Counted from the first letter of the stretch, positions 1-9,339 are shown. The stretch: 64,000 bases of DNA from an uncultured Acidobacteriota bacterium (GCA_963843575.1 CAWJKZ010000014.1:576001-640000), one strand, 5' to 3'. The notes: generated by a model from the letters alone, not told the origin. Numbers and translations are program-made.

Positions 1-423
1 TTTCCTCCGCGCGAACTCCTCGAAGGCATCCAGGGCCCGGTCGCGGGCGACTGCGTCCCGGATGACGTCCTGCACTTCGACCTCGTCCGCCGCGAGCGCG
101 TCCAGGATGCGCTTCTGGATCTCCGCCCGTTCGAGCTTCTGCAACGCGTCGTCCCTGAGCACCTCGGACAGTTTCTCAACAGTCCAACCCCGTGCGGCCG
201 CAGCTATCCCGGCGGCCTGAAAGACCTCATGGAAAGGGACGCTCAGTTCGGCCGGCAGGTCCGCGAGCGTGCGCACCTCCTCGGACCTGATCTCGGTCAT
301 CAGTTCAGTGAGGGTGATGGTGCGGGTCCGAAGTTTCACCGGGGATTGGACGGTCGCGGGCAGGGCCTTCTCCAGTATCCCGAGACGGTCCCCCAGAGCC
401 TGCATGATCTCGACCAGTCGCAT
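1..423 (-). CDS. Hypothetical alpha-helical protein, runs off the window edge (missed by ORF track)
   Basis: Manual translation from ATG at 423, 2 nt after the AAA stop: MRLVEIMQALGDRLGILEKA...GWTVEKLSEVL...VIRDAVARDRALDAFEEFARRK. No stop to position 1 and GC3-rich codons. Confidence 0.85.
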   Translation of the reverse strand, partial: MRLVEIMQALGDRLGILEKALPATVQSPVKLRTRTITLTELMTEIRSEEVRTLADLPAELSVPFHEVFQAAGIAAAARGWTVEKLSEVLRDDALQKLERAEIQKRILDALAADEVEVQDVIRDAVARDRALDAFEEFARRK

Positions 424-425
424 GG

Positions 426-2159
426 CTAGGTGAATCTCCTCAGCTCTTCGATTCGAGCTTCGAGTTGTTCGGGCGGCAGGTCGCGGAAGCGCGGGGGCAG
501 GAAGCGGCTGTCGGTGCATTCTCGTACCGCGACCAGATCCATGTACTCCAGCTTGCGCGTGTGCGCGCTCGGGCGCACCTCTCTGAAGACCTCGGCCAGC
601 GTCTCCTTCAGCGGCCGCCGCGGCGCCGGCGTCAGCTCGTGCACGCGCAGTGCCCGGACGAGCACCCCTTCGATCTCGTTCCCCCCCAGGGCGGCGTGGC
701 CAGCGAGCTCCGGCAGGTCCTGTTCCGCCAAGGGGAACTTGAGCTTGCGCGCCACCGACAGCAGCAGCGCCCGCAACTCCTCGGGGCTCTCGGGCGGGAA
801 GAGCGGGATGTGAACGTCGAGGCGGCCCTGCCGTTTCAGATCGACCTCGAGCAGGTCGGGCCGGGACGTGGCAAAGACCCAGAGTATCCGGCCCCGGTTG
901 CGCGTGTCCGACATCTCCTTGGCCAGCATCGAGTAGACGCGGCCCGAAAGGCCGCTGTCGGAGTCGCCCCCACCGCGCTTCCCGGCGGCCTGATCGGCCT
1001 CGTCCACGAAGACGACCACCTGCCCGAGCGCCCTCAGCACGGAAAAGATCTTCTCGAGGTTGGACTCGGTCGCCCCGACCCAGCGGTCCCGGAAGTTCTT
1101 GAACACGACGCAGGGTATCCCCAGCTCCCCGGCCCAGCACTGCACCAGGAAGGTCTTCCCGGTGCCGATACGGCCCGTGATGAGGTAGCCCATCGGCAAC
1201 GCGTGCAGGGTCCCGCGCCGCAGCAATTCCGCGTCGTCGCGCAGCCACGATTTCACCGCGTCGGAGCCGGCGACGTTGTCCAGGGTGAAGGGCGATTCCA
1301 GGAACTCGAGCAGGTCCTGGCACTCTTTCTCGATCTGCTCCTTTTTCATCCGGGACAGCCATGCGGACGAGACGGTGCGGCCGGTTTTCAGCGCCATGGC
1401 GAGAACGGTGCGCGCCCCGACCCGGCTGAGCCCTGTCAGCCGCCGCCCGAGGACGTCCATCGGGACCTCGCACCGGGACGGGAGTTCGGGCAGGGTGGTC
1501 GCAACCAATCCCTCGAGGTACCGGCACATCTCCGGCTCGTCCGGCAGCGGCATCCGCAGGGTGCGCGCGTGCGGGTTCCGCACGATCAGATCGTTCAGGT
1601 CGTGCAGCCCCTCGGTGAGCAGCACCGTGACGATGTTGGACTGCAGGATGGCGGGGTCGTTGGCCCAACCCAGCACCTTCACGACGTTGGAGCTGAAGGG
1701 CCCGCCGAGCTGGATCGGATCGCCTCGCGGCACCACGAACTCGGCGAAATCGATGATCACGGCGATCCGGCGCGAGCCGCCGGCGTCGCGCCCGCGCAGC
1801 GACTGGAGGTTCAGGGTGCGCAGCAGGTACCGGTCGATCAGCTCCATCGCGGGGCCCGGCTCACGCGTCTGACCGATGGTGAAGGCCTGTTCTCCCAGAG
1901 CCTGCTTGAGCCAGTCCGCCCAGTCCTCGGCGCCACGGGTCGCCCGGATGCCCTTCCCGCGGTCGTAATGCAGCACCGTGTCGTACGTCTCGAACATGAC
2001 CTCTTCGAGAAAGGCCTTCAGCGACAGCAGCCGCGGCCCCGACGGGCCGACGGCGGGAACGACGTCGAATATGTTTCCGTGCACGACGAATTGGGCCACC
2101 GAACCCGACTTGAACAGGTCGCGCATTTCGGCCGCCCAGGACGGCAGTTCAGGACTCAT
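426..2159 (-). CDS. AAA+ ATPase with a degenerate N-terminal AAA-like domain and an active C-terminal AAA domain
   Basis: Walker A GRIGTGKT, pore loop RWVG, Walker B VVFVDEAD, second region of homology ATSRPDLLEVDLKRQGRLD. The N-terminal half has IIDFAEF but no Walker A. Confidence 0.9.
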   Translation of the reverse strand: MSPELPSWAAEMRDLFKSGSVAQFVVHGNIFDVVPAVGPSGPRLLSLKAFLEEVMFETYDTVLHYDRGKGIRATRGAEDWADWLKQALGEQAFTIGQTREPGPAMELIDRYLLRTLNLQSLRGRDAGGSRRIAVIIDFAEFVVPRGDPIQLGGPFSSNVVKVLGWANDPAILQSNIVTVLLTEGLHDLNDLIVRNPHARTLRMPLPDEPEMCRYLEGLVATTLPELPSRCEVPMDVLGRRLTGLSRVGARTVLAMALKTGRTVSSAWLSRMKKEQIEKECQDLLEFLESPFTLDNVAGSDAVKSWLRDDAELLRRGTLHALPMGYLITGRIGTGKTFLVQCWAGELGIPCVVFKNFRDRWVGATESNLEKIFSVLRALGQVVVFVDEADQAAGKRGGGDSDSGLSGRVYSMLAKEMSDTRNRGRILWVFATSRPDLLEVDLKRQGRLDVHIPLFPPESPEELRALLLSVARKLKFPLAEQDLPELAGHAALGGNEIEGVLVRALRVHELTPAPRRPLKETLAEVFREVRPSAHTRKLEYMDLVAVRECTDSRFLPPRFRDLPPEQLEARIEELRRFT

Positions 2160-2192
2160 GCAATCTCCGCGGGCACACCCTCCGCTGCGGGG

Positions 2193-3053
2193 CTACTGCG
2201 ATTCAGAAGCCGGAACGTTGACGGAGAGCGGGGGAGGCTCCGCCAGCAGGTCCTCCACGGCGCCGTAGATCTGTTGCTGCTCCTTCATCCACTCGGTGGT
2301 TCCCCCGAGTGTCGTCGTGATCTGATCTATGCGCTGCGACAGGGCTTCCGGGTCGGCGGCCAAGACCGCCTGCTCGCGCACGAGCTCGACCTGATCCTGT
2401 ATCCGCGTCAACTCCGCGTCGAGGAAGGCCAGCTTGTCGCGCGCCTCCTGCCTCTTCTGGAGGCGTTGCTGCAGGATCTCCGCCTGACCGGTGAGGCTGC
2501 GCCGCAACTCCTCTCCCATCGCTTCGTCTTTCAGGCGGCTCTCCAGGCCCGAGATGCGCTGCCGCAGGCGCTCCGTATCCTCCTGCGTGTTGTCGGCGCT
2601 CCGTACGATGCGCTCGATGGCCTGCCGGGCGAGGAGCAGCCGCAGGTAGACCCAGAGCAGCCGGCCCAGACCCTGCCCCTGGGCGTCGATGCCCGATGCC
2701 GGGGCGTTGAGCCGGTACTGTTGTTCGAGGATGGCCCGGCAACGCACGTCGAGTTCCCGGTACCGTCGCTGGCCGTCGGGCCCGAGCTGGGCGACCAGCT
2801 GATCGACGCGTTGCTGCCACGTGCGCCTCTCTTTCCACTGCAGCGTGGCGTCGACAAAACGTTGGAAGCGGTTGTTGGTCGAAAGGGCGCCGAGGTAGGC
2901 TAACTCCAGGCCCAGGCCCATCACCCAGAACCCGGGGCTGACCAGGCCCAGCAGGACGAACGCGCCGATGCCGACCCAGTTCGGCGGTACGAACATACCG
3001 ATGGGCCGGGCGTGGAAAGCCTCGCGAATATAGTCCGAGAATCCCGGTTTCAT
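2193..3053 (-). CDS. Membrane-anchored (2 TM) coiled-coil hypothetical protein
   Basis: N-terminal hydrophobic hairpin (WVGIGAFVLLGLVSPGFWVMGLGLELAYL) followed by long Q/E/R/L-rich helices. ATGA overlap with the ABC ATPase stop. Confidence 0.85.
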   Translation of the reverse strand: MKPGFSDYIREAFHARPIGMFVPPNWVGIGAFVLLGLVSPGFWVMGLGLELAYLGALSTNNRFQRFVDATLQWKERRTWQQRVDQLVAQLGPDGQRRYRELDVRCRAILEQQYRLNAPASGIDAQGQGLGRLLWVYLRLLLARQAIERIVRSADNTQEDTERLRQRISGLESRLKDEAMGEELRRSLTGQAEILQQRLQKRQEARDKLAFLDAELTRIQDQVELVREQAVLAADPEALSQRIDQITTTLGGTTEWMKEQQQIYGAVEDLLAEPPPLSVNVPASESQ

Positions 3054-3913
3054 ACGCCAACCCGAGGGGGCCCCGCGCCGGCGCCCGCCGGGAGCCCCAC
3101 CGCTTCCGAAACGCGGCGGAAGGCTTCCGTGACGACCGACACGGCGTTTTTGAATTCCGGCCGCTCTTGCGCCACGAGCGGAGGGATCTCCACGCTGCGC
3201 GGAATGGATTCGGAAATATCATAAGCGATCTGCCCCGGGGCGTGGGTAAATATCCACACCCGCTCCCCCAGGTAAACCGCTTCGGTCACGCTGTGGGTCA
3301 CGCACAGGATTGTCGGGTGGACGCGGTGCCAGAGCCGCACGACCAGTTCCTGCATCTCGAGGCGAGTGGGTTCGTCCAGCGCGGAAAACGGCTCGTCCAT
3401 GAGGAGGATCCGCGGCTCCATGGCGAGCGAGCGGGCGATCGCAACCCGCTGCTGCTGGCCTCCGGACAGCTGGTGGGGGTATTTTGCGGCGTGATCGGCC
3501 AGACCGACCCGCTCCAGCAGTTCCTCGACGCGGGCCCTGCGTCCGGCGCCGTCCAGCGGCAACCCCTTCCTGTTGATGTCCAGACCGAACATGACGTTCT
3601 GAAAAACGGTCAGGTGGGGGAAAGAACTGTACTGCTGAAAGATCATGCCCCGGTCGCGGCCCGGCCCCTGTACGGGCTTCCCTTTGACGAGCACCTCCCC
3701 GCCGGTCGGCAGCAGGAACCCGGCGATGAGGTTCAGCATCGTGCTCTTGCCGCAACCCGACGGTCCGATGATGGTGATGAACTCGCCGTGGTCGGGAACG
3801 TCCGGGACGGCCACCGAGATGTCGTTCAGGGCGAGAAATTGGCCGAACCGGACGCTGGCGTCGCGCAGCTCGACGACGGGCGGGACCCGGCGCGCATCGG
3901 TTGTGAGCGTCAT
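3050..3913 (-). CDS. ABC transporter ATP-binding protein, NitT/TauT (TauB/SsuB-like) family
   Basis: GPSGCGKS, LSGGQQQR, LLMDEPFSALD, VTH. Start set at ATG 3913 (MTLTTDARR), overlapping the permease stop (ATGA). Confidence 0.92.
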   Translation of the reverse strand: MTLTTDARRVPPVVELRDASVRFGQFLALNDISVAVPDVPDHGEFITIIGPSGCGKSTMLNLIAGFLLPTGGEVLVKGKPVQGPGRDRGMIFQQYSSFPHLTVFQNVMFGLDINRKGLPLDGAGRRARVEELLERVGLADHAAKYPHQLSGGQQQRVAIARSLAMEPRILLMDEPFSALDEPTRLEMQELVVRLWHRVHPTILCVTHSVTEAVYLGERVWIFTHAPGQIAYDISESIPRSVEIPPLVAQERPEFKNAVSVVTEAFRRVSEAVGLPAGAGAGPPRVGV

Positions 3914-4734
3914 CTTCGATCCCTTCGGTACGGAAACAGCACGCCCCCCAGCCGGGCCCATCCGAGGTCGGCAACCCACGCGATCAGGGTGATGATGACG
4001 ATCACCAGGTACACCCGTCCGGACATCGCACGCCGCCGCGCGGTGTCGATCAGGTCGCCGAGCCCCCCCGCCTTGACGACCACCTCGGCCAGGACGAGAT
4101 AGGTCCACCCGACCCCGAACGCCAGCCGCATCGAGTGCCAGATCTCCGGTGCGGCGACAGGCACGAGGACCCGGCGGATCACCTGCCAGCGCCCTGCCCC
4201 GAGGGTGTATGCGGTCCTCAGATAGACGTCCGGGACCGCGTCGATGGCGTTGACTACAGCCGGCAGCAGGAAAATGGAGAAGGCGAGGGCCAGAAACACC
4301 ACTTTCTGAATCTCGTCCACGCCGAACCACGACATGGTCAACGGGACCAGCGTGGCGATCGGTATGTACCCGCTGGCCGTCACCAGCGGACCGAAGGTGC
4401 TCCGCGCGCTTCCGAAGGCCCCCATGACGATCCCCAGCGGGAGCACCACGGCCAGCGCCAGGATGAACCCGAGCCCGACCCGGGTCAGGCTGATGATCGT
4501 GTGGTCCAGCAGCCCACGGTTGTCCTGATCGCTGCTGCCTACCAGGTCCTTCAGGCTGTCGACCACTTCGGCGGGGCTCGGGAGGATCGTGGGGCCGAGC
4601 ACGCGCTCTTCGGCCGCCCCCCGGGTGGCATACCACCACAGGATCACGAGGACGAGGATGGGCACCAGACCGAGCACCAGCGCCGCACCGCGGGGAACGC
4701 GGCCGCGTATTGCCACGAACCATCTCGGAAGCAT
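3910..4734 (-). CDS. ABC transporter permease, NitT/TauT (TauC/SsuC-like) family
   Basis: About 6 TM segments, LPSPAEV motif, EAA-like loop YLRTAYTLGAGRWQVIRRVLVP, GWTYLVLAE. Start ATG 4734. Confidence 0.9.
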   Translation of the reverse strand: MLPRWFVAIRGRVPRGAALVLGLVPILVLVILWWYATRGAAEERVLGPTILPSPAEVVDSLKDLVGSSDQDNRGLLDHTIISLTRVGLGFILALAVVLPLGIVMGAFGSARSTFGPLVTASGYIPIATLVPLTMSWFGVDEIQKVVFLALAFSIFLLPAVVNAIDAVPDVYLRTAYTLGAGRWQVIRRVLVPVAAPEIWHSMRLAFGVGWTYLVLAEVVVKAGGLGDLIDTARRRAMSGRVYLVIVIITLIAWVADLGWARLGGVLFPYRRDRR

Positions 4735-4741
4735 GGGAGAG

Positions 4742-4770
4742 ACATTAAGCAAGTACAACTCCGGTGTCAA
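4742..4770 (-). promoter_or_regulatory. Sigma70-type promoter, probably driving a leaderless mRNA
   Basis: Minus strand reads TTGACA-17 nt-TAATGT, then 7 nt to the permease ATG, with no Shine-Dalgarno sequence. Confidence 0.6.
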
Positions 4771-4850
4771 CTGCCGCGCCGCAACTCACTCCCGGCCGTG
4801 ACCTATACGCGGAATTCCAGCGGTTTATTCAGTTGTGAACGGCAATATCC

Positions 4851-5041
4851 TCAAGTGGGTCCGGGCTGAAGAGGCTGTCCAACGATTGAACTGGCCGCGC
4901 CGCGGCGCCCGCGAAACCAGAGTCGGGTCCGGTGCTTCACGACTCGGCACGTCTTTAGGCGATCTGCATCCTGATTGGACGACAGGTCGATCTCGAATAG
5001 CGACCGCAAACTGCGTCCGGGTGAAGCCCGGGCCCACTTGA
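4851..5041. ncRNA. Candidate structured RNA (or MITE-like element) of unknown family
   Basis: 17-bp terminal inverted repeat TCAAGTGGGTCCGGGCT / AGCCCGGGCCCACTTGA (one G-U/mismatch) enclosing further stems GTCCAA/TTGGAC, CTGG/CCAG, GAGTCG/CGACTC and GGTCG/CGACC. Confidence 0.45.
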
Positions 5042-5066
5042 TTCAACTCTGTGTGTCGGTTGTGGA

Positions 5067-6008
5067 CTAGCTGTTGACGGCCACCTGACCCCCGCAGGGG
5101 ACGGAACCCAGGACCACCTGGTTGCGCCCCATGGATTTGGCGCGGTACAGGGCCGCGTCGGCCACGCGGATCAGGCCGTTCACGTCGGTGGCGTCATCAA
5201 ACGACCCGCAGGCCACTCCGGCGCTTATGGTCACCCGGACGTCGCCCTCGGGTAGCACCACCGGTTCGCACATGACTGAAGCCCGTACGCGTTCCGCGTT
5301 GCCGACGCCGTCGGCGGCATCACATCCGGGCATCAGGATGAGGAACTCCTCCCCACCGTAGCGCCCGATGAGGTCGTAACGGCGTACCGCACGGCGGAGA
5401 CGCTGCGCAATGTCGACGAGCACGACGTCGCCCGTAAGGTGGCCGTAGGTGTCGTTGATGACCTTGAAGTGGTCGACATCGGCGAGGATGATCCCGAGGC
5501 AAGAGCGGTCGCGGCCGGAGCGGTCGAGTTCCCGACGGAGCTGTTCCAGTACCTCGGCCCGGCTGTAGAGCCCGGTGAGGCTGTCGTGGGAGACCATGTA
5601 GCGGAGGGATTCGCGCGTGGCCAGCAACTGTCCCTGCAGCTCGATGATGCGGCGGCCGGCATTCAGCCGCATCCGCAGTTCCTGAGGGTCGAACGGTTTC
5701 GAGACGTAATCGTCCGCTCCCGCTCCCATGCCGTGGATGACGTCGGCCTTCTGGGTCTTCGAGGTCAACAGCATGAGGTAGCGGTAGGGTTCGCCCAACT
5801 GCTCCCGGACTTTGCGGCAGACGTCGATGCCGTCCATGCCCGGCATGATCCAGTCGAGGATGGCCAGTTCCGGGCCGTTGTCGGCCGATAGTAATGCCCA
5901 GGCCTCTACTCCGTCGCAGGCGGTTACGACCTCGTAACCCCAGCGTACGAGCGTCTCCTTGAGGATGTGCCGGGAGATCTCGTCGTCTTCCGCAAGCAGC
6001 ACTTTCAA
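5067..6008 (-). CDS. Response-regulator diguanylate cyclase (REC-GGDEF)
   Basis: REC domain (VLLAEDD, ILDWIMPGMDG, KPF), RYGGEEF active site, RxxD I-site (RRYD). TTG start overlaps the kinase stop. Confidence 0.92.
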   Translation of the reverse strand: MKVLLAEDDEISRHILKETLVRWGYEVVTACDGVEAWALLSADNGPELAILDWIMPGMDGIDVCRKVREQLGEPYRYLMLLTSKTQKADVIHGMGAGADDYVSKPFDPQELRMRLNAGRRIIELQGQLLATRESLRYMVSHDSLTGLYSRAEVLEQLRRELDRSGRDRSCLGIILADVDHFKVINDTYGHLTGDVVLVDIAQRLRRAVRRYDLIGRYGGEEFLILMPGCDAADGVGNAERVRASVMCEPVVLPEGDVRVTISAGVACGSFDDATDVNGLIRVADAALYRAKSMGRNQVVLGSVPCGGQVAVNS

Positions 6009-9000
6009 GCCAGCATCCCCTGCCCCAATTCCTCCGCAACGGGCACAAAACGTTCGATCTCGGACTTCAACTCGGTAAAGGCCCGACGCGCTTCGTCCGG
6101 GAGTCGCTCCCGGCCCGCCGCCTCCAGGCGGGCCGCGGCCTCGACCGCAGGTTGGGCACCAAAGTTCGCAATGCTGCCCTTGACGGAATGGGCGGTGCGT
6201 TCGAGCAGGACGAAATCCTCGTGCTCGATGGCTTCCCGAAGTTGTTGAAGGAGGCCGCCGGCCTTTTCCCGGAACAACCGGAGCGCCTTCAGGAGAAACT
6301 CGCCGTCGTTGCCGAACCGGGCCACGACCTCGTCGAGGTTGACGATATCGCGCGAGAGTGTCGCCTCGACCTTCCGGGCTTCGGTAGAGGATCTGAGTCC
6401 GCCCTGCGCGATCGATTCGATCGTCTGAAGCAGTTCTGCCGGGTGGATCGGCTTGGACAGGTACCGGTCCATGCCGGCGGCCAGGCAACGTTCCCGGTCG
6501 CCCTTCATGGTGTGGGCGGTCATCGCGACGACCGGAACTTGCGCTAGGACCGGGTCATCCAGCTTCCGGATGGCCGCAGTCGCCTCGAAGCCGTCCATGA
6601 CGGGCATCTGCACGTCCATCAGGACAAGGTCGAAACGGCCTCGTTTCAGGGCCTCGACCGCGAGCAGGCCGTTGTCGACAACGACCGTTTGATGGCCGCG
6701 CTTTTCCAGGACCCGATACACAATCTGCTGGTTGATCGCGTTGTCCTCAGCGACGAGGATGCGGAGGCAATCCGGCGCGGTCGAGGAAGGGCCGTCCGCC
6801 GACGGCCCGGACAGAGAACCGGTCTTCCCCGCCAGCTCGCAGATGCGAATTCAGCAGATCCGACTGGACAACGGGTTTCCTCAGGAATGCGTCGACACCG
6901 TACTCACTGTATTCGCGCAGACCGCCGAGGTTGGCCGACGTCAGCAGCAGGATGCGCAGTCGCGCCAGCCGAGGGTTCTGCCGGATGCGGCGCGCGACCT
7001 CCAAACCGTCCATTCCCGGCATCATGGTATCGAGCGAGCACGATCCGGAAAGGATCGGGCGAGTCCAGGGCGGCCTCCAGCAGCTTCAGCCCGGAAGGAC
7101 CGTCCACCGCCAGTTTCGGGCGCATCCCCCAGTTCAGGAGCATCGCCTGCAGTATTCTGCGGTTGACCTGGTTGTCGTCGACGACGAGTACGGGCAGATC
7201 GTGCAGCTCCTGAGGGTCAGCCCCCTTATCGAAACGCCTCCGCGGCAACCTGGAACAGTACGGTGAAGTGGAACTCGCTCCCGCGTCCCGGCTCGCTGTC
7301 GACCCAGATCTCGCCCCCCATCATCGCGACCAGCTTCGACGAGATCGTCAGCCCGAGGCCGGTTCCGCCGTACTTCCGGGTCATGGAACCATCGGCCTGC
7401 GAAAACGCCTTGAAAATCACTTCCTGTTTCTCGGGCGGGATTCCGATGCCGGTGTCGGTGATGGCGAAATGCAGCGCGACGCAATCCTCGGAATGCGCCT
7501 CGGAATCGATGTGGACGATGACGTCTCCGCGCTCGGTGAACTTGATCGCGTTCCCCACGAGGTTCAGCACAACCTGACGCAGCCGGTCCGGGTCGCCGAT
7601 CAGGGCATCGGGGACCGTGGGGAGCACGTTGCACGACAGCTCGAGCCCTTTCTGATGGGCCCGCATCGCGAGCATCTTGAGGGCAGTCCCCAGCGTGTCG
7701 CGCAGCCGGAATTCGACCGGGTCGAGTTCGAGCTTTCCGGCTTCGATCTTGGAAAAATCGAGGATGTCGTTCAACAGCCCGAGCAGCGAGTCGGCTGACA
7801 CCTTCACGGTCTGCATGTACTCGCGCTGTTCCCGGCTCAGCGACGTATCGAGCAGGAGTTCGGTCATCCCGATGATTCCGTTCATCGGGGTGCGGATCTC
7901 GTGGCTCATGTTCGCCAGGAACTCGCTCTTGGCGCGGCTCGCGGACTCGGCCGCCTCTTTGGCCCTTCTCAGTTCCTCGGCTACCTTCTTTCGCTCCGTG
8001 ATGTCCTCGACAAACCCCTCGAAGTAGAGCGGTTCGCCGTCTTCATCGGTGACGGTGCGGGCCTTCTCCGAGGTCCAGATGATGGTGCCGTCCCTGCGGT
8101 AGACGCGCGACTCGAAGCCGGTGATGGAACCGTTTTCCCTGGTCAGGCGGACGAATTTCTCCCGGCGACCTTCTTCGACGTATATTCGGCGGCTTGCACC
8201 CCGGCTGGCGATGAGCTCTTCAGGCGAATTGTATCCATAGATCCGGGCAAGCGCCGGGTTGCAGGTGAGGAAACGCCCGTCGAGGGTGGTCTGGAAGACT
8301 CCCTCCTGTGCGTTCTCGAAAATGGCGCGGTACTTGGCCTCGGCCTCCCGCAGGGCCCGTTCCGTGTCCTTGCGGCCCGTCGCATCTCGAGCGATCCCAT
8401 GGACCCCGGTCGTCACGCCGTTCACCACGATCGGGCGCGCGCTCACTTCAACTGCGACACGCCGCCCATCCTTGGCGCATATCACCAGGTCGCAGGTCGT
8501 GCCGCACTCCGGGCCTGCCATTGACCCCATCAGGCCGCGCGCCCTGTCGAGATCTTCGGCTGTCACGATCTGGGCGAAGTTCATACCCAGGGCTTCCTGC
8601 TTGGAGTACCCCGTGACCCGTTCGATGGCGGAGTTGACGGAGGTGAGGTTGCCCTCCGGGTCGAGCGTGTAGATGATGTCGGTGGTGTTGTCGAACAGCG
8701 AGGCGATCCAGGCTTCGTCCTGGCAGCGTGCGGCTTTGGCGGCGACGGCAGCGTTTGCATCGCGGAAAAAACCGACCAGCCCAGTAATTTGTCCCAAGGA
8801 ATCCCGGAGTGGAGCTTTCGTGTAAGAGACCCAGGCGAGACTGGCACCGGGATGAAGCGTCGGGGCGATCCTTTCGGTCAGGGGCACACCGGTTTCCAGG
8901 ATGCGCTGTTCCTCGGCAAAGAAAGCCTCGGCCTGATCGATGCCCAGATAATCAAAGTCCGTCCTGCCAACCACTTCGGCGGGATCCATGACGCCAAGCG

Positions 9001-9145
9001 CCTCGGCGTACGGGCGGTTTACCTTGATGTACCGGGATTCGGTGTCCTTGAAACAGACGCCGTGGGAAACACAATCCATGAGCCCCTGCAGCAACTCGCC
9101 GGCATCTGGACGGCTGTTTCCGCGGACATCATTGTTTTCGGGCAT
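6005..9145 (-). CDS. Hybrid sensor histidine kinase (3x PAS-HisKA-HATPase-REC-REC-Hpt) with three apparent +1 frameshifts
   Basis: FLANMSHEIRTPMNG, NLVGNAIKFT, GGTGLGL, two REC domains, Hpt AHSVKG. The frame is restored by deleting one base at about 7233, 7036 and 6845. Confidence 0.88.
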
Positions 9146-9339
9146 ATAGGAGAAGCGCCTCCCGCCTGGAGCCGCATGTGAGCCGGGTCTGCTGTCGGCG
9201 GCAGTTCGGCGCAAAAATACAGCGCTGCCTCTATTCAGTTCCAGACTGTCTTTTCGGCTTCCGCCGGAATTTGTCTTAGGCCAAATCGGGGCAAACGCCC
9301 GGTTGAGTCTCGACCGGGCGCATTTGATTGTGCTTTCTC

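Follow-up and report, generated by a model that had tools for sequence, protein, structure and literature searches.

An eight-gene Acidobacteriota operon encoding PspA, a tandem AAA+ ATPase and a NitT/TauT-like ABC transporter with an OmpA-fused binding protein

The DNA analysed here, a window of 64,000 nucleotides from an uncultured Acidobacteriota bacterium (GCA_963843575.1, contig CAWJKZ010000014.1, positions 576001-640000; G000:C14:576001-640000 in our numbering), carries at its left end the greater part of an eight-gene operon on the minus strand. The genes encode, in order, an ATP-binding cassette (ABC) permease, an ABC ATPase, a protein with two transmembrane segments (the 2-TM protein), a tandem AAA+ ATPase, a 215-residue orphan protein, PspA/IM30, a solute-binding protein fused to OmpA, and a VWA lipoprotein. 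The five promoter-proximal genes lie within the window, transcribed from position 4770 towards position 1, and the remaining three beyond its left edge, in the adjoining 14 kb (L003; Table 1). Our preferred reading, to which we give a probability of roughly 0.6, is that the operon belongs to the PspA-AAA+-ABC-PBPB/OmpA class, and that in it a PspA polymer is served by a membrane-tethered AAA+ ATPase and linked to an importer.

The operon class is already in print, as the initial annotation of the window, made from the sequence alone, had warned it might be. A single paragraph of Ravi et al. 2024 (mSystems, PMC11237479, section 18) describes PspA-AAA+ operons that include an ABC ATPase, a permease and a PBPB-OmpA protein and proposes for them a role in ATP-dependent remodelling of membranes that is tied to the transport of solutes: the same association, with the same proposed meaning, as in the operon presented here. 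The class has been catalogued by comparative genomics, and what we add is its division into three architecture types, the restricted occurrence of the 215-residue orphan, and a motif in the PspA tail. Neither the 215-residue protein nor the VWA lipoprotein is mentioned in that section, nor are the three gene orders or the tail motif; Text S2.2 and Table S3 of the same paper may cover some of these. It also speaks of "Snf7 homologs with a TM segment", whereas the 2-TM protein of our operon has no detectable likeness to Snf7. Our literature search found no experimental work on the class, and the available portion of Popp et al. 2022 (PMC9239133) does not mention it.

Within the window, the initial annotation had described five co-directional genes with two ATGA overlaps and gaps of 33 and 2 nucleotides, and direct reading of the sequence showed this to be exact, the shorter gap being TAG CC ATG. 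Of the neighbours it had thought possible to the left, PspA, an OmpA-fused binding protein and a VWA gene are all present, in that order and on the same strand. [quoted passage not shown] The linkage stands, but the superfamily member is the downstream PspA, and neither the 286-residue 2-TM protein nor the fifth protein.

The identity of PspA rests on profile matches. PF04012 matches 30/30 of its relatives (best E 2.4e-11); the PspA of the closest relative (L025), 97% identical to ours in the N-terminal part, scores 34.7 bits against a cut-off of 33.9 over residues 3-219 of 252, and the N-terminal piece of our own PspA scores 32.6 bits by itself. Two structures of Vipp1, 8qfv and 7o3w, are matched by the PspA profile (residues 1-174, E 2e-5). 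On the Pfam model the PspAs of the main AAA+-linked family reach 35-48 bits versus 60-173 bits for the canonical PspAs of the phylum, and their mean column identity across phyla is 71%. The operon's gene provides the sole PspA_IM30 match in this genome, which is 88% complete. In the assembly it is split into pieces of 102 and about 151 codons, one nucleotide being missing relative to four relatives at about L003 13345-13350; intact genes of about 243-280 codons are found in 61 relatives. The break is probably an assembly indel error, because the essential genes rpoB and rpoC are broken likewise in the same assembly (G000:C24:252860-261310), where the match to rpoB is spread over 7 pieces and changes frame six times, and that to rpoC over 4 pieces with two changes. 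Among public sequencing runs the best DNA share was 0.14, none of RNA was listed, and the site of the pspA break is not covered. An assembly this rich in single-base indels means that apparent pseudogenes of this genome are not to be trusted without reads. Internal stops or frame breaks were also seen in conserved operon genes of L009, L020, L035, L038, L041, L046 and L079, many of them long-read metagenome-assembled genomes (MAGs), and are artefacts of the same kind.

The AAA+ protein, of 577 residues, consists of two AAA folds of different character. Its C-terminal domain matches PF00004 (residues 326-452, 6e-23) and carries Walker A (GRIGTGKT, 329-336), Walker B (VFVDEAD, 383-389) and ATSRP (430-434); the aromatic pore loop RWVG and the arginine-finger region claimed for it earlier were located at 359-362 and 443-448 (RQGRLD). 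The domain thus has the Walker A and B motifs, the aromatic pore loop 1 and the second region of homology with arginine fingers that define classical-clade AAA enzymes. Its best PDB matches are Cdc48 D2 (9e-35), VAT and p97 D2 (E 9e-35 to 1e-30), and NCBIfam models rank CDC48 first (1.2e-19; 70.2 bits versus a cut-off of 802), then FtsH (2.3e-16), PAN (6.5e-12) and CdvC (4.9e-9). Mean column identity of the domain over 24 relatives from three phyla is 84%.

The N-terminal domain is recognizable by structure. A model of residues 1-290 (27 sequences; predicted local distance difference test (pLDDT) score 78.5, predicted TM-score (pTM) 0.78) shows an AAA+ fold beginning at about residue 2-6 and lacking Walker A, which confirms the "inactive plus active" architecture proposed at the outset: where Walker A would stand, the sequence is HGNIFD and has no lysine. 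With the threshold set to E<=0.001, Foldseek matched the model to at least 500 chains, and every one of the 50 rows listed is an AAA+ module, with Cdc6, proteasomal Rpt subunits, p97, NSF/Sec18, Vps4 and Trip13 among the matches listed. Searches with the domain's sequence found no match in the PDB at E<=10 and nothing AAA-like in Pfam at E<=10, comparison of its profile with that of the C-terminal domain gave a probability of 0.2%, and the same domain of an AAA+ homologue in Atlas fell in no named family. A tandem AAA+ protein with an inactive first domain is the architecture that Ravi et al. 2024 describe. Two named families were considered for the protein and rejected: Vps4/CdvC, as residues 2-290 form an AAA fold and not a three-helix MIT bundle, and the CdvC model yields 35.6 bits against a cut-off of 650; and Cdc48/p97/VAT, as the first AAA fold, which itself lacks Walker A, begins too early to leave space for an N domain before it.

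The PspAs linked to this ATPase share a distinctive C-terminus: a conserved terminal helix (ALAEFLASQGIQA or similar), a variable linker rich in Ala, Pro and Glu, and lastly a short motif that is set back from the end by a few residues. In its overall form, [KR][TE][ILM]G[PSAK], the motif is almost confined to AAA+-linked PspAs. The version K[EQ][IM]GP occurs in 60/61 intact PspA relatives and in the C-terminal piece from this genome; PspA tails of type-3 and divergent loci (defined below) have KEMGP, KELGP, KDMGP, REMGP, KTMGP or NAMGP, and those encoded beside the most distant AAA+ genes have EKTLGP, ERTLGS, SRTIGK or EKTIGA. Among the phylum's 30 best-scoring canonical PspAs, 4 have [ILMV]GP near the end. 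These belong to one subgroup of 6 genomes (4 with LGP, 2 with LGS), every one of which encodes an AAA+ homologue (6/6), adjoining PspA in 3 and elsewhere in the genome in 3 (E 2e-77 to 2e-99). Around PspA genes lacking the motif, an AAA+ homologue was found within 8 kb in 0/8 control loci, and when such genomes were searched whole it was present in 1/5, a genome with a second, weak PspA. The tail motif is a candidate recognition tag for the ATPase, a role suggested by co-occurrence in few and related genomes. In ESCRT-III, the MIT-interacting motif (MIM) is a short motif ending a flexible C-terminal tail, and it is to this that we liken the tail of PspA.

The 2-TM protein comes from the gene that constantly partners the AAA+ gene on its upstream side, the stop and start of the two genes often overlapping. 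The model of the protein (113 sequences; pLDDT 93.4, pTM 0.86) has a hydrophobic hairpin of two helices (about residues 24-59), preceded by a short helix at the N-terminus and followed by a compact seven-helix cytoplasmic bundle at 61-263 and a conserved C-terminal tail: a predicted helical bundle modelled with confidence, and not assignable to a known fold. Likeness to the ESCRT-III superfamily was not detected: comparison with the operon's own PspA profile by hhalign gave a probability of 0.6%, none of the 113 family members matched Snf7 or PspA in Pfam, and in Foldseek Vipp1 (7o3w) came at rank 29 with a probability of 0.07. No ESCRT-III chain figured among the 50 best VIA rows, though absence from such lists leaves the fold possible.

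Conservation of the gene neighbourhood was surveyed from both ends, using 80 of the 183 relatives of the AAA+ protein, one genome per species, and 80 of the 192 relatives of the 2-TM protein; counts are over assessable loci, and the genomes are related, not independent. In the forward survey the 2-TM gene stood directly upstream of the AAA+ gene in 73/75 loci, PspA downstream of it in 68/70 and an OmpA-fused protein near it in 58/60; a VWA gene was nearby in 33/55 and the 215-residue gene in 27/76. The ABC pair was found in 16/50 loci, and in 6/12 loci around more divergent homologues; the condition named at the outset as refuting the initial interpretation, that homologues of the AAA+ and 2-TM genes do not co-occur with this pair in other genomes, therefore fails. 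The 215-residue gene, the ABC pair and a binding protein at least 60% identical to ours are jointly present in those 16 loci and jointly absent from the other 34/50. Starting from the 2-TM protein, an AAA+ match was found in 72/76 loci (65 by strict adjacency, 7 further along as split matches) and PspA in 64/68.

The loci fall into three types. Type 1, in Acidobacteriota including the present one and in Planctomycetota, has all eight genes, though in Phycisphaerae and Pirellulales the ABC pair follows the VWA gene and does not lead the operon; the permeases of this type are 55-90% identical to ours. Type 2, in Gemmatimonadota and Vicinamibacterales, has the 2-TM, AAA+ and PspA genes, an OmpA protein with a faint NMT1 signal and the VWA gene, and no ABC pair. 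Type 3, with the order PspA, binding protein-OmpA, permease, ATPase, 2-TM, AAA+, accounts for 6/12 loci around divergent AAA+ genes (47-53% identity), a further locus lacking a detectable 2-TM gene. The ABC pair, binding protein, PspA, 2-TM and AAA+ genes are thus found together in three gene orders, which is a stronger argument for linkage than the counts. A tree of the AAA+ proteins, rooted with the most distant homologues, places type 3 as sister to types 1 and 2, with type 2 nested among type-1 branches; support is 98 and 96 for the two main splits and 82-91 along the inner backbone. This topology fits an ancestor that bore the ABC pair and a later loss of the pair. The median identities to the proteins of our genome agree: in type 2, 29% for the binding protein and 73% for the AAA+ protein; in type 3, 60% and 50%.

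Further observations were made on individual loci. Type-2 loci often have a flavin amine oxidase gene between those of the OmpA-fused and VWA proteins (L034 14345-15820: PF01593, 6.7e-57), which may hint at an amine ligand. In several Planctomycetota (L059 and L158, from the same Tepidisphaeraceae MAG; L110, L111 and L126) the AAA+ and 2-TM genes are on different contigs or loci and PspA is not nearby, so that the system can be dispersed in some members of this phylum. An AAA+ gene on a 2.5-kb contig of a Burkholderiales MAG (L052) has near-identical counterparts in two Acidobacteriota MAGs, among which the tree places it; the contig is probably mis-binned.

The link between ATPase and PspA is the one that persists furthest. 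Of 301 genomes sampled evenly across the phylum, the AAA+ protein was found, at E<=1e-100, in 21 (this one included) and a PspA_IM30 match in 88; 16 of the 20 other AAA+ carriers have a PspA match within 8 kb on the same contig. Of the four exceptions, two are small contigs, one has its AAA+ gene where the contig starts, and one is a genome with no PspA match. AAA+ homologues only 36-39% identical (L173, L174) keep a PspA neighbour, with no other partner detectable. This persistence bears on the main rival to our reading, namely that the ATPase acts on membrane proteins instead of PspA: it would perform quality control or extraction in the manner of FtsH, Msp1 or Cdc48, with the transporter, the OmpA-fused protein or the 2-TM protein as clients, and PspA would merely stabilize the membrane at the extraction site. 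Such a role would suit an active domain that most resembles Cdc48-D2, VAT and FtsH, an ATPase gene whose tightest neighbour, often overlapping it, encodes the 2-TM protein, and the conserved C-terminal tail which that protein also has. The most distant homologues, however, have retained PspA and none of the proposed clients that we can detect, and it is the tail motif of PspA that tracks the presence of the ATPase; we consider the quality-control role unlikely.

If the operon served not repair but an ESCRT-like scission of membranes or formation of vesicles, giving rise to vesicles of the outer or inner membrane or to membranes within the cell, the wall-anchored and VWA proteins might define the site of budding. 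The BAR matches obtained with the 2-TM protein are within the range expected of any helical bundle, and the patchy distribution just described (21/301) also speaks against such a system, which we regard as quite improbable. We judge it more improbable still that the operon serves in defence against phage or in some other conflict, with the ATPase as effector or sensor. The Psp (phage shock protein) response was first named for phage stress, and PADLOC does match IetA-type models to the AAA+ protein (best 2.2e-10) and mad3 to the ABC ATPase, as NCBIfam does IteA (2.3e-7); but the PADLOC matches (IetA; mad3/mad8/AriA) cover only generic ATPase cores, 6/8 proteins match nothing, Pfam scans reveal no nuclease, protease or toxin-like gene in the operon, and the extreme conservation of PspA (71%) and the AAA C-terminal domain (84%) is unlike that of fast-evolving defence genes.

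The transporter genes are those of a NitT/TauT-type importer: permease, ATPase and an NMT1/SsuA/TauA-type binding protein are encoded in one operon. The permease matches BPD_transp_1 (PF00528, 1.4e-16) and the ATPase ABC_tran (PF00005, 1.6e-33). The pair had been called TauC/TauB-like, and TauC (1.3e-34) and TauB (2.6e-59) are indeed the best NCBIfam models, but the scores, 119.8 bits versus a cut-off of 342 and 200.8 versus 357, fall far short of equivalogs; SsuC gives the permease 57.1 versus 347. The statement that no solute-binding gene lies upstream is literally true but reflects the edge of the window, the binding protein being encoded downstream, to its left. This protein of 570 residues has a membrane anchor at its N-terminus, a binding domain of the NMT1/SsuA type and, at its C-terminus, a peptidoglycan-binding OmpA domain. 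The binding domain matches NMT1 (1.4e-7), Phosphonate-bd (2e-5) and NMT1_2 (5.1e-5) in Pfam, TIGR03427 (8.6e-21; 74.4 bits versus 333.9) and SsuA_fam (2.7e-18; 66.2 versus 163.5) in NCBIfam, and SsuA (2x26, 2e-7) and TauA (6ssy, 2.3e-7) in the PDB; the OmpA domain, at residues 468-557, matches PF00691 (1e-11, 45.5 bits versus a cut-off of 27.2) and the peptidoglycan-binding domain of Omp38 (3td3, 2.1e-9). A TauABC or SsuABC equivalog, with a named substrate, is ruled out, every score falling below the NCBIfam equivalog cut-off. That the genes form an ordinary sulfonate, taurine or urea-type importer beside unrelated stress genes, as the best named models (TauC, TauB, SsuA and a putative urea-binding protein) might suggest, is hardly credible given scores far below equivalog cut-offs, a binding protein that is OmpA-fused and separated from the transporter genes by four non-transport genes, and a set that has stayed together through three rearrangements, down to about 50% identity.

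The VWA protein encoded last, which we take for a periplasmic lipoprotein, has a lipobox-like N-terminus and a DTSGS metal site, both recognized by eye. The 215-residue protein matches no Pfam or NCBIfam family; its 158 homologues are all unnamed, longer, fused forms of it were looked for and none found (which is weak evidence), and its homologue in Atlas clusters only with its own kind. Profile comparison gave 0.2% with PspA and 2% with the 2-TM protein. Its gene is found in ABC-bearing type-1 loci and, weakly (32% identity), in the odd locus L172, and not in types 2 and 3. In two Planctomycetota loci (L081 11821-14640 and the same place in L082) an open reading frame of 940 residues with no Pfam family lies between the AAA+ and 215-residue genes.

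We return to the reading in which the ATPase serves PspA. From the gene content, domain folds and conserved linkage observed above we infer the following scheme of binding partners, substrate and trigger. PspA, which belongs to the ESCRT-III superfamily, would polymerize on the inner membrane's cytoplasmic face. The AAA+ protein, a tandem of a dead D1-like ring and an active Cdc48-D2-like ring bearing the RWVG pore loop, would engage the flexible C-terminal tail of PspA that ends in the motif and, as an enzyme dedicated to the polymer, remodel or disassemble it; this ATPase would be functionally Vps4-like, of separate origin. The 2-TM protein may hold the ATPase at the membrane or mark its site of action. 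The binding protein would tie the inner membrane to the wall and feed the NitT/TauT-type importer, such that solute uptake could be coupled to membrane remodelling or repair, and the 215-residue protein would be an adaptor specific to one ABC-bearing arrangement.

Several results weigh against this reading. The ATPase resembles Vps4/CdvC less than it does Cdc48-D2 and FtsH, and it lacks an MIT domain; the Vps4 analogy is therefore functional only. The ABC pair is missing from 34/50 loci, those of type 2, and transport is therefore not essential to the core. The AAA+ gene has no PspA nearby in L033, L059 and L166 and in 4/20 genomes, partly at contig ends, and 3/6 of the motif-bearing PspAs of the small canonical subgroup are encoded far from their AAA+ gene. 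The 2-TM and 215-residue proteins have no assignable fold or family, counts over related genomes overstate the support, pspA of this assembly is itself split by a one-nucleotide deletion, and a sigma-70-type scan of 4600-5200 found no promoter.

The resemblance to ESCRT-III/Vps4 lies in an ESCRT-III-superfamily polymer protein encoded beside a classical-clade AAA+ protein; the ATPase here differs in having two AAA folds instead of one, no MIT domain and an active domain nearer to Cdc48-D2/FtsH. According to the part available of a 2025 review (PMC7619361) a Vps4-like ATPase appears absent in bacteria, and Makarova et al. 2024 (PMC10936438), in the part available, confine systems of vps4 and ESCRT-III to archaea and eukaryotes. 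We put forward as tentative, at appreciably less than even odds, the idea that the operons constitute, in at least three phyla, an independent counterpart of ESCRT-III/Vps4 in which a tagged PspA of a divergent subfamily, a dedicated Cdc48-like AAA+ protein held at the membrane by a 2-TM protein of new fold, and an ancestral wall-tethered ABC importer form one device. If true, this would contradict the review's view that bacteria possess no Vps4-like partner for PspA polymers, and the ancestral importer would make solute uptake (osmotic or envelope homeostasis) and ATP-driven remodelling parts of the same device.

Other known systems share single features with the operon. The proteobacterial Psp system (PspF-PspABC) also has a PspA/IM30 effector with an N-terminal amphipathic helix paired genetically with an AAA+ protein, but PspF, a sigma-54 enhancer-binding AAA+ protein inhibited by PspA (PMC7619361, in the part available), is not a pore-loop unfoldase, and Pfam detects no PspB, PspC or sigma-54 activator domains in our operon. 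Type II AAA+ proteins (Cdc48/p97/VAT and NSF) have two stacked AAA folds, an aromatic pore loop and double arginine fingers in common with the protein here, which lacks their N-terminal double-psi barrel and, in its first AAA fold, the Walker A lysine. NitT/TauT importers (TauABC, SsuABC) have the same permease, ATPase and NMT1/SsuA-type binding domain, whereas the binding protein here is membrane-anchored, OmpA-fused and encoded four genes away. The archaeal "Meth_adaptin" ESCRT-like loci, some of which include a gene for a binding protein of the ProX family (Makarova et al. 2024, PMC10936438), resemble ours, as far as that account goes, in placing an ABC-type solute-binding protein gene in an ESCRT-III/AAA+ neighbourhood; they differ in being archaeal, with a true Vps4, another family of binding protein and no OmpA fusion.

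The operon class is a concrete bacterial candidate for taking apart or recycling PspA/Vipp1 polymers, and it has assets, namely an unusually conserved PspA, a pore-loop AAA+ protein with a dead first ring and a short, mutable tail motif, that make the question directly testable. The link to the importer may be a sign that envelope mechanics and the uptake of solutes are coupled.

Table 1. Genes and domains of the operon and the region preceding it. Plain coordinates count from the first letter of the window; those prefixed G000:C14 are contig positions.
Feature	Coordinates	Strand	Remarks
Intergenic region upstream of permease	4771..5066	-	296 nt; other flank is the stop of a response-regulator/GGDEF gene
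ABC permease, NitT/TauT-like	3910..4770	-	PF00528; 286 aa from TTG 4770; alternative start ATG 4734
ABC ATPase	3050..3913	-	PF00005; 287 aa; start overlaps permease stop (ATGA)
2-TM protein, 286 aa	2193..3053	-	no assignable family
AAA+ N-terminal domain (residues 1-290)	1290..2159	-	degenerate AAA+ fold, no P-loop
AAA+ C-terminal domain (residues 291-577)	426..1289	-	active classical-clade AAA module and conserved C-terminal extension
215-aa orphan, first 141 codons	1..423	-	full gene G000:C14:575776-576423 (L003 13776-14423), ending 225 nt left of window
pspA	G000:C14:574896-575653	-	PF04012; outside window
Binding protein fused to OmpA, 570 aa	G000:C14:573082-574794	-	NMT1/SsuA-type and PF00691; outside window
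VWA lipoprotein, 264 aa	G000:C14:572240-573031	-	outside window

The limits of the operon were examined at both ends. It had been said to lie behind its own promoter, which the scan of 4600-5200 did not bear out: there were no sigma-70-type sites in a region that includes the 296-nucleotide intergenic gap, and no terminators either. A promoter is presumed to lie in 4771-5066. By eye, a TTGACA hexamer overlaps the TTG start of the permease at 4770, which makes ATG 4734 an alternative start. Over the operon as a whole, 2 promoter-like and 3 terminator-like sites were returned, not above the level in shuffled sequences, and an Rfam search of the entire operon at E<=0.1 gave no matches. A GC-rich hairpin with a T-rich tail lies on the minus strand at L003 13752-13768 (window -248 to -232), 8 nucleotides past the stop of the 215-residue gene, in the 122-nucleotide gap before pspA, which is also where relatives have their largest operon gap; it may mark an attenuator or an internal promoter region.

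Upstream, window positions 5067-9214 hold minus-strand genes that were assigned by eye to a response regulator with GGDEF, a protein with receiver and Hpt domains, and a hybrid histidine kinase rich in PAS domains. These two-component genes are probably outside the system: we leave them out because they are kept beside the operon only in the closest relative, L025. On the far side, 3' of the VWA gene and also on the minus strand (G000:C14:568955-572151; L003 6955-10151), are genes for a regulator of the TetR type, for an outer-membrane factor resembling TolC (PF02321, 7.4e-55) and for an HlyD-like adaptor assigned by eye. The TetR and efflux genes are not counted in the system; a TetR homologue 46-81% identical follows the operon in 11 type-1 Acidobacteriota loci, which may be plain synteny.

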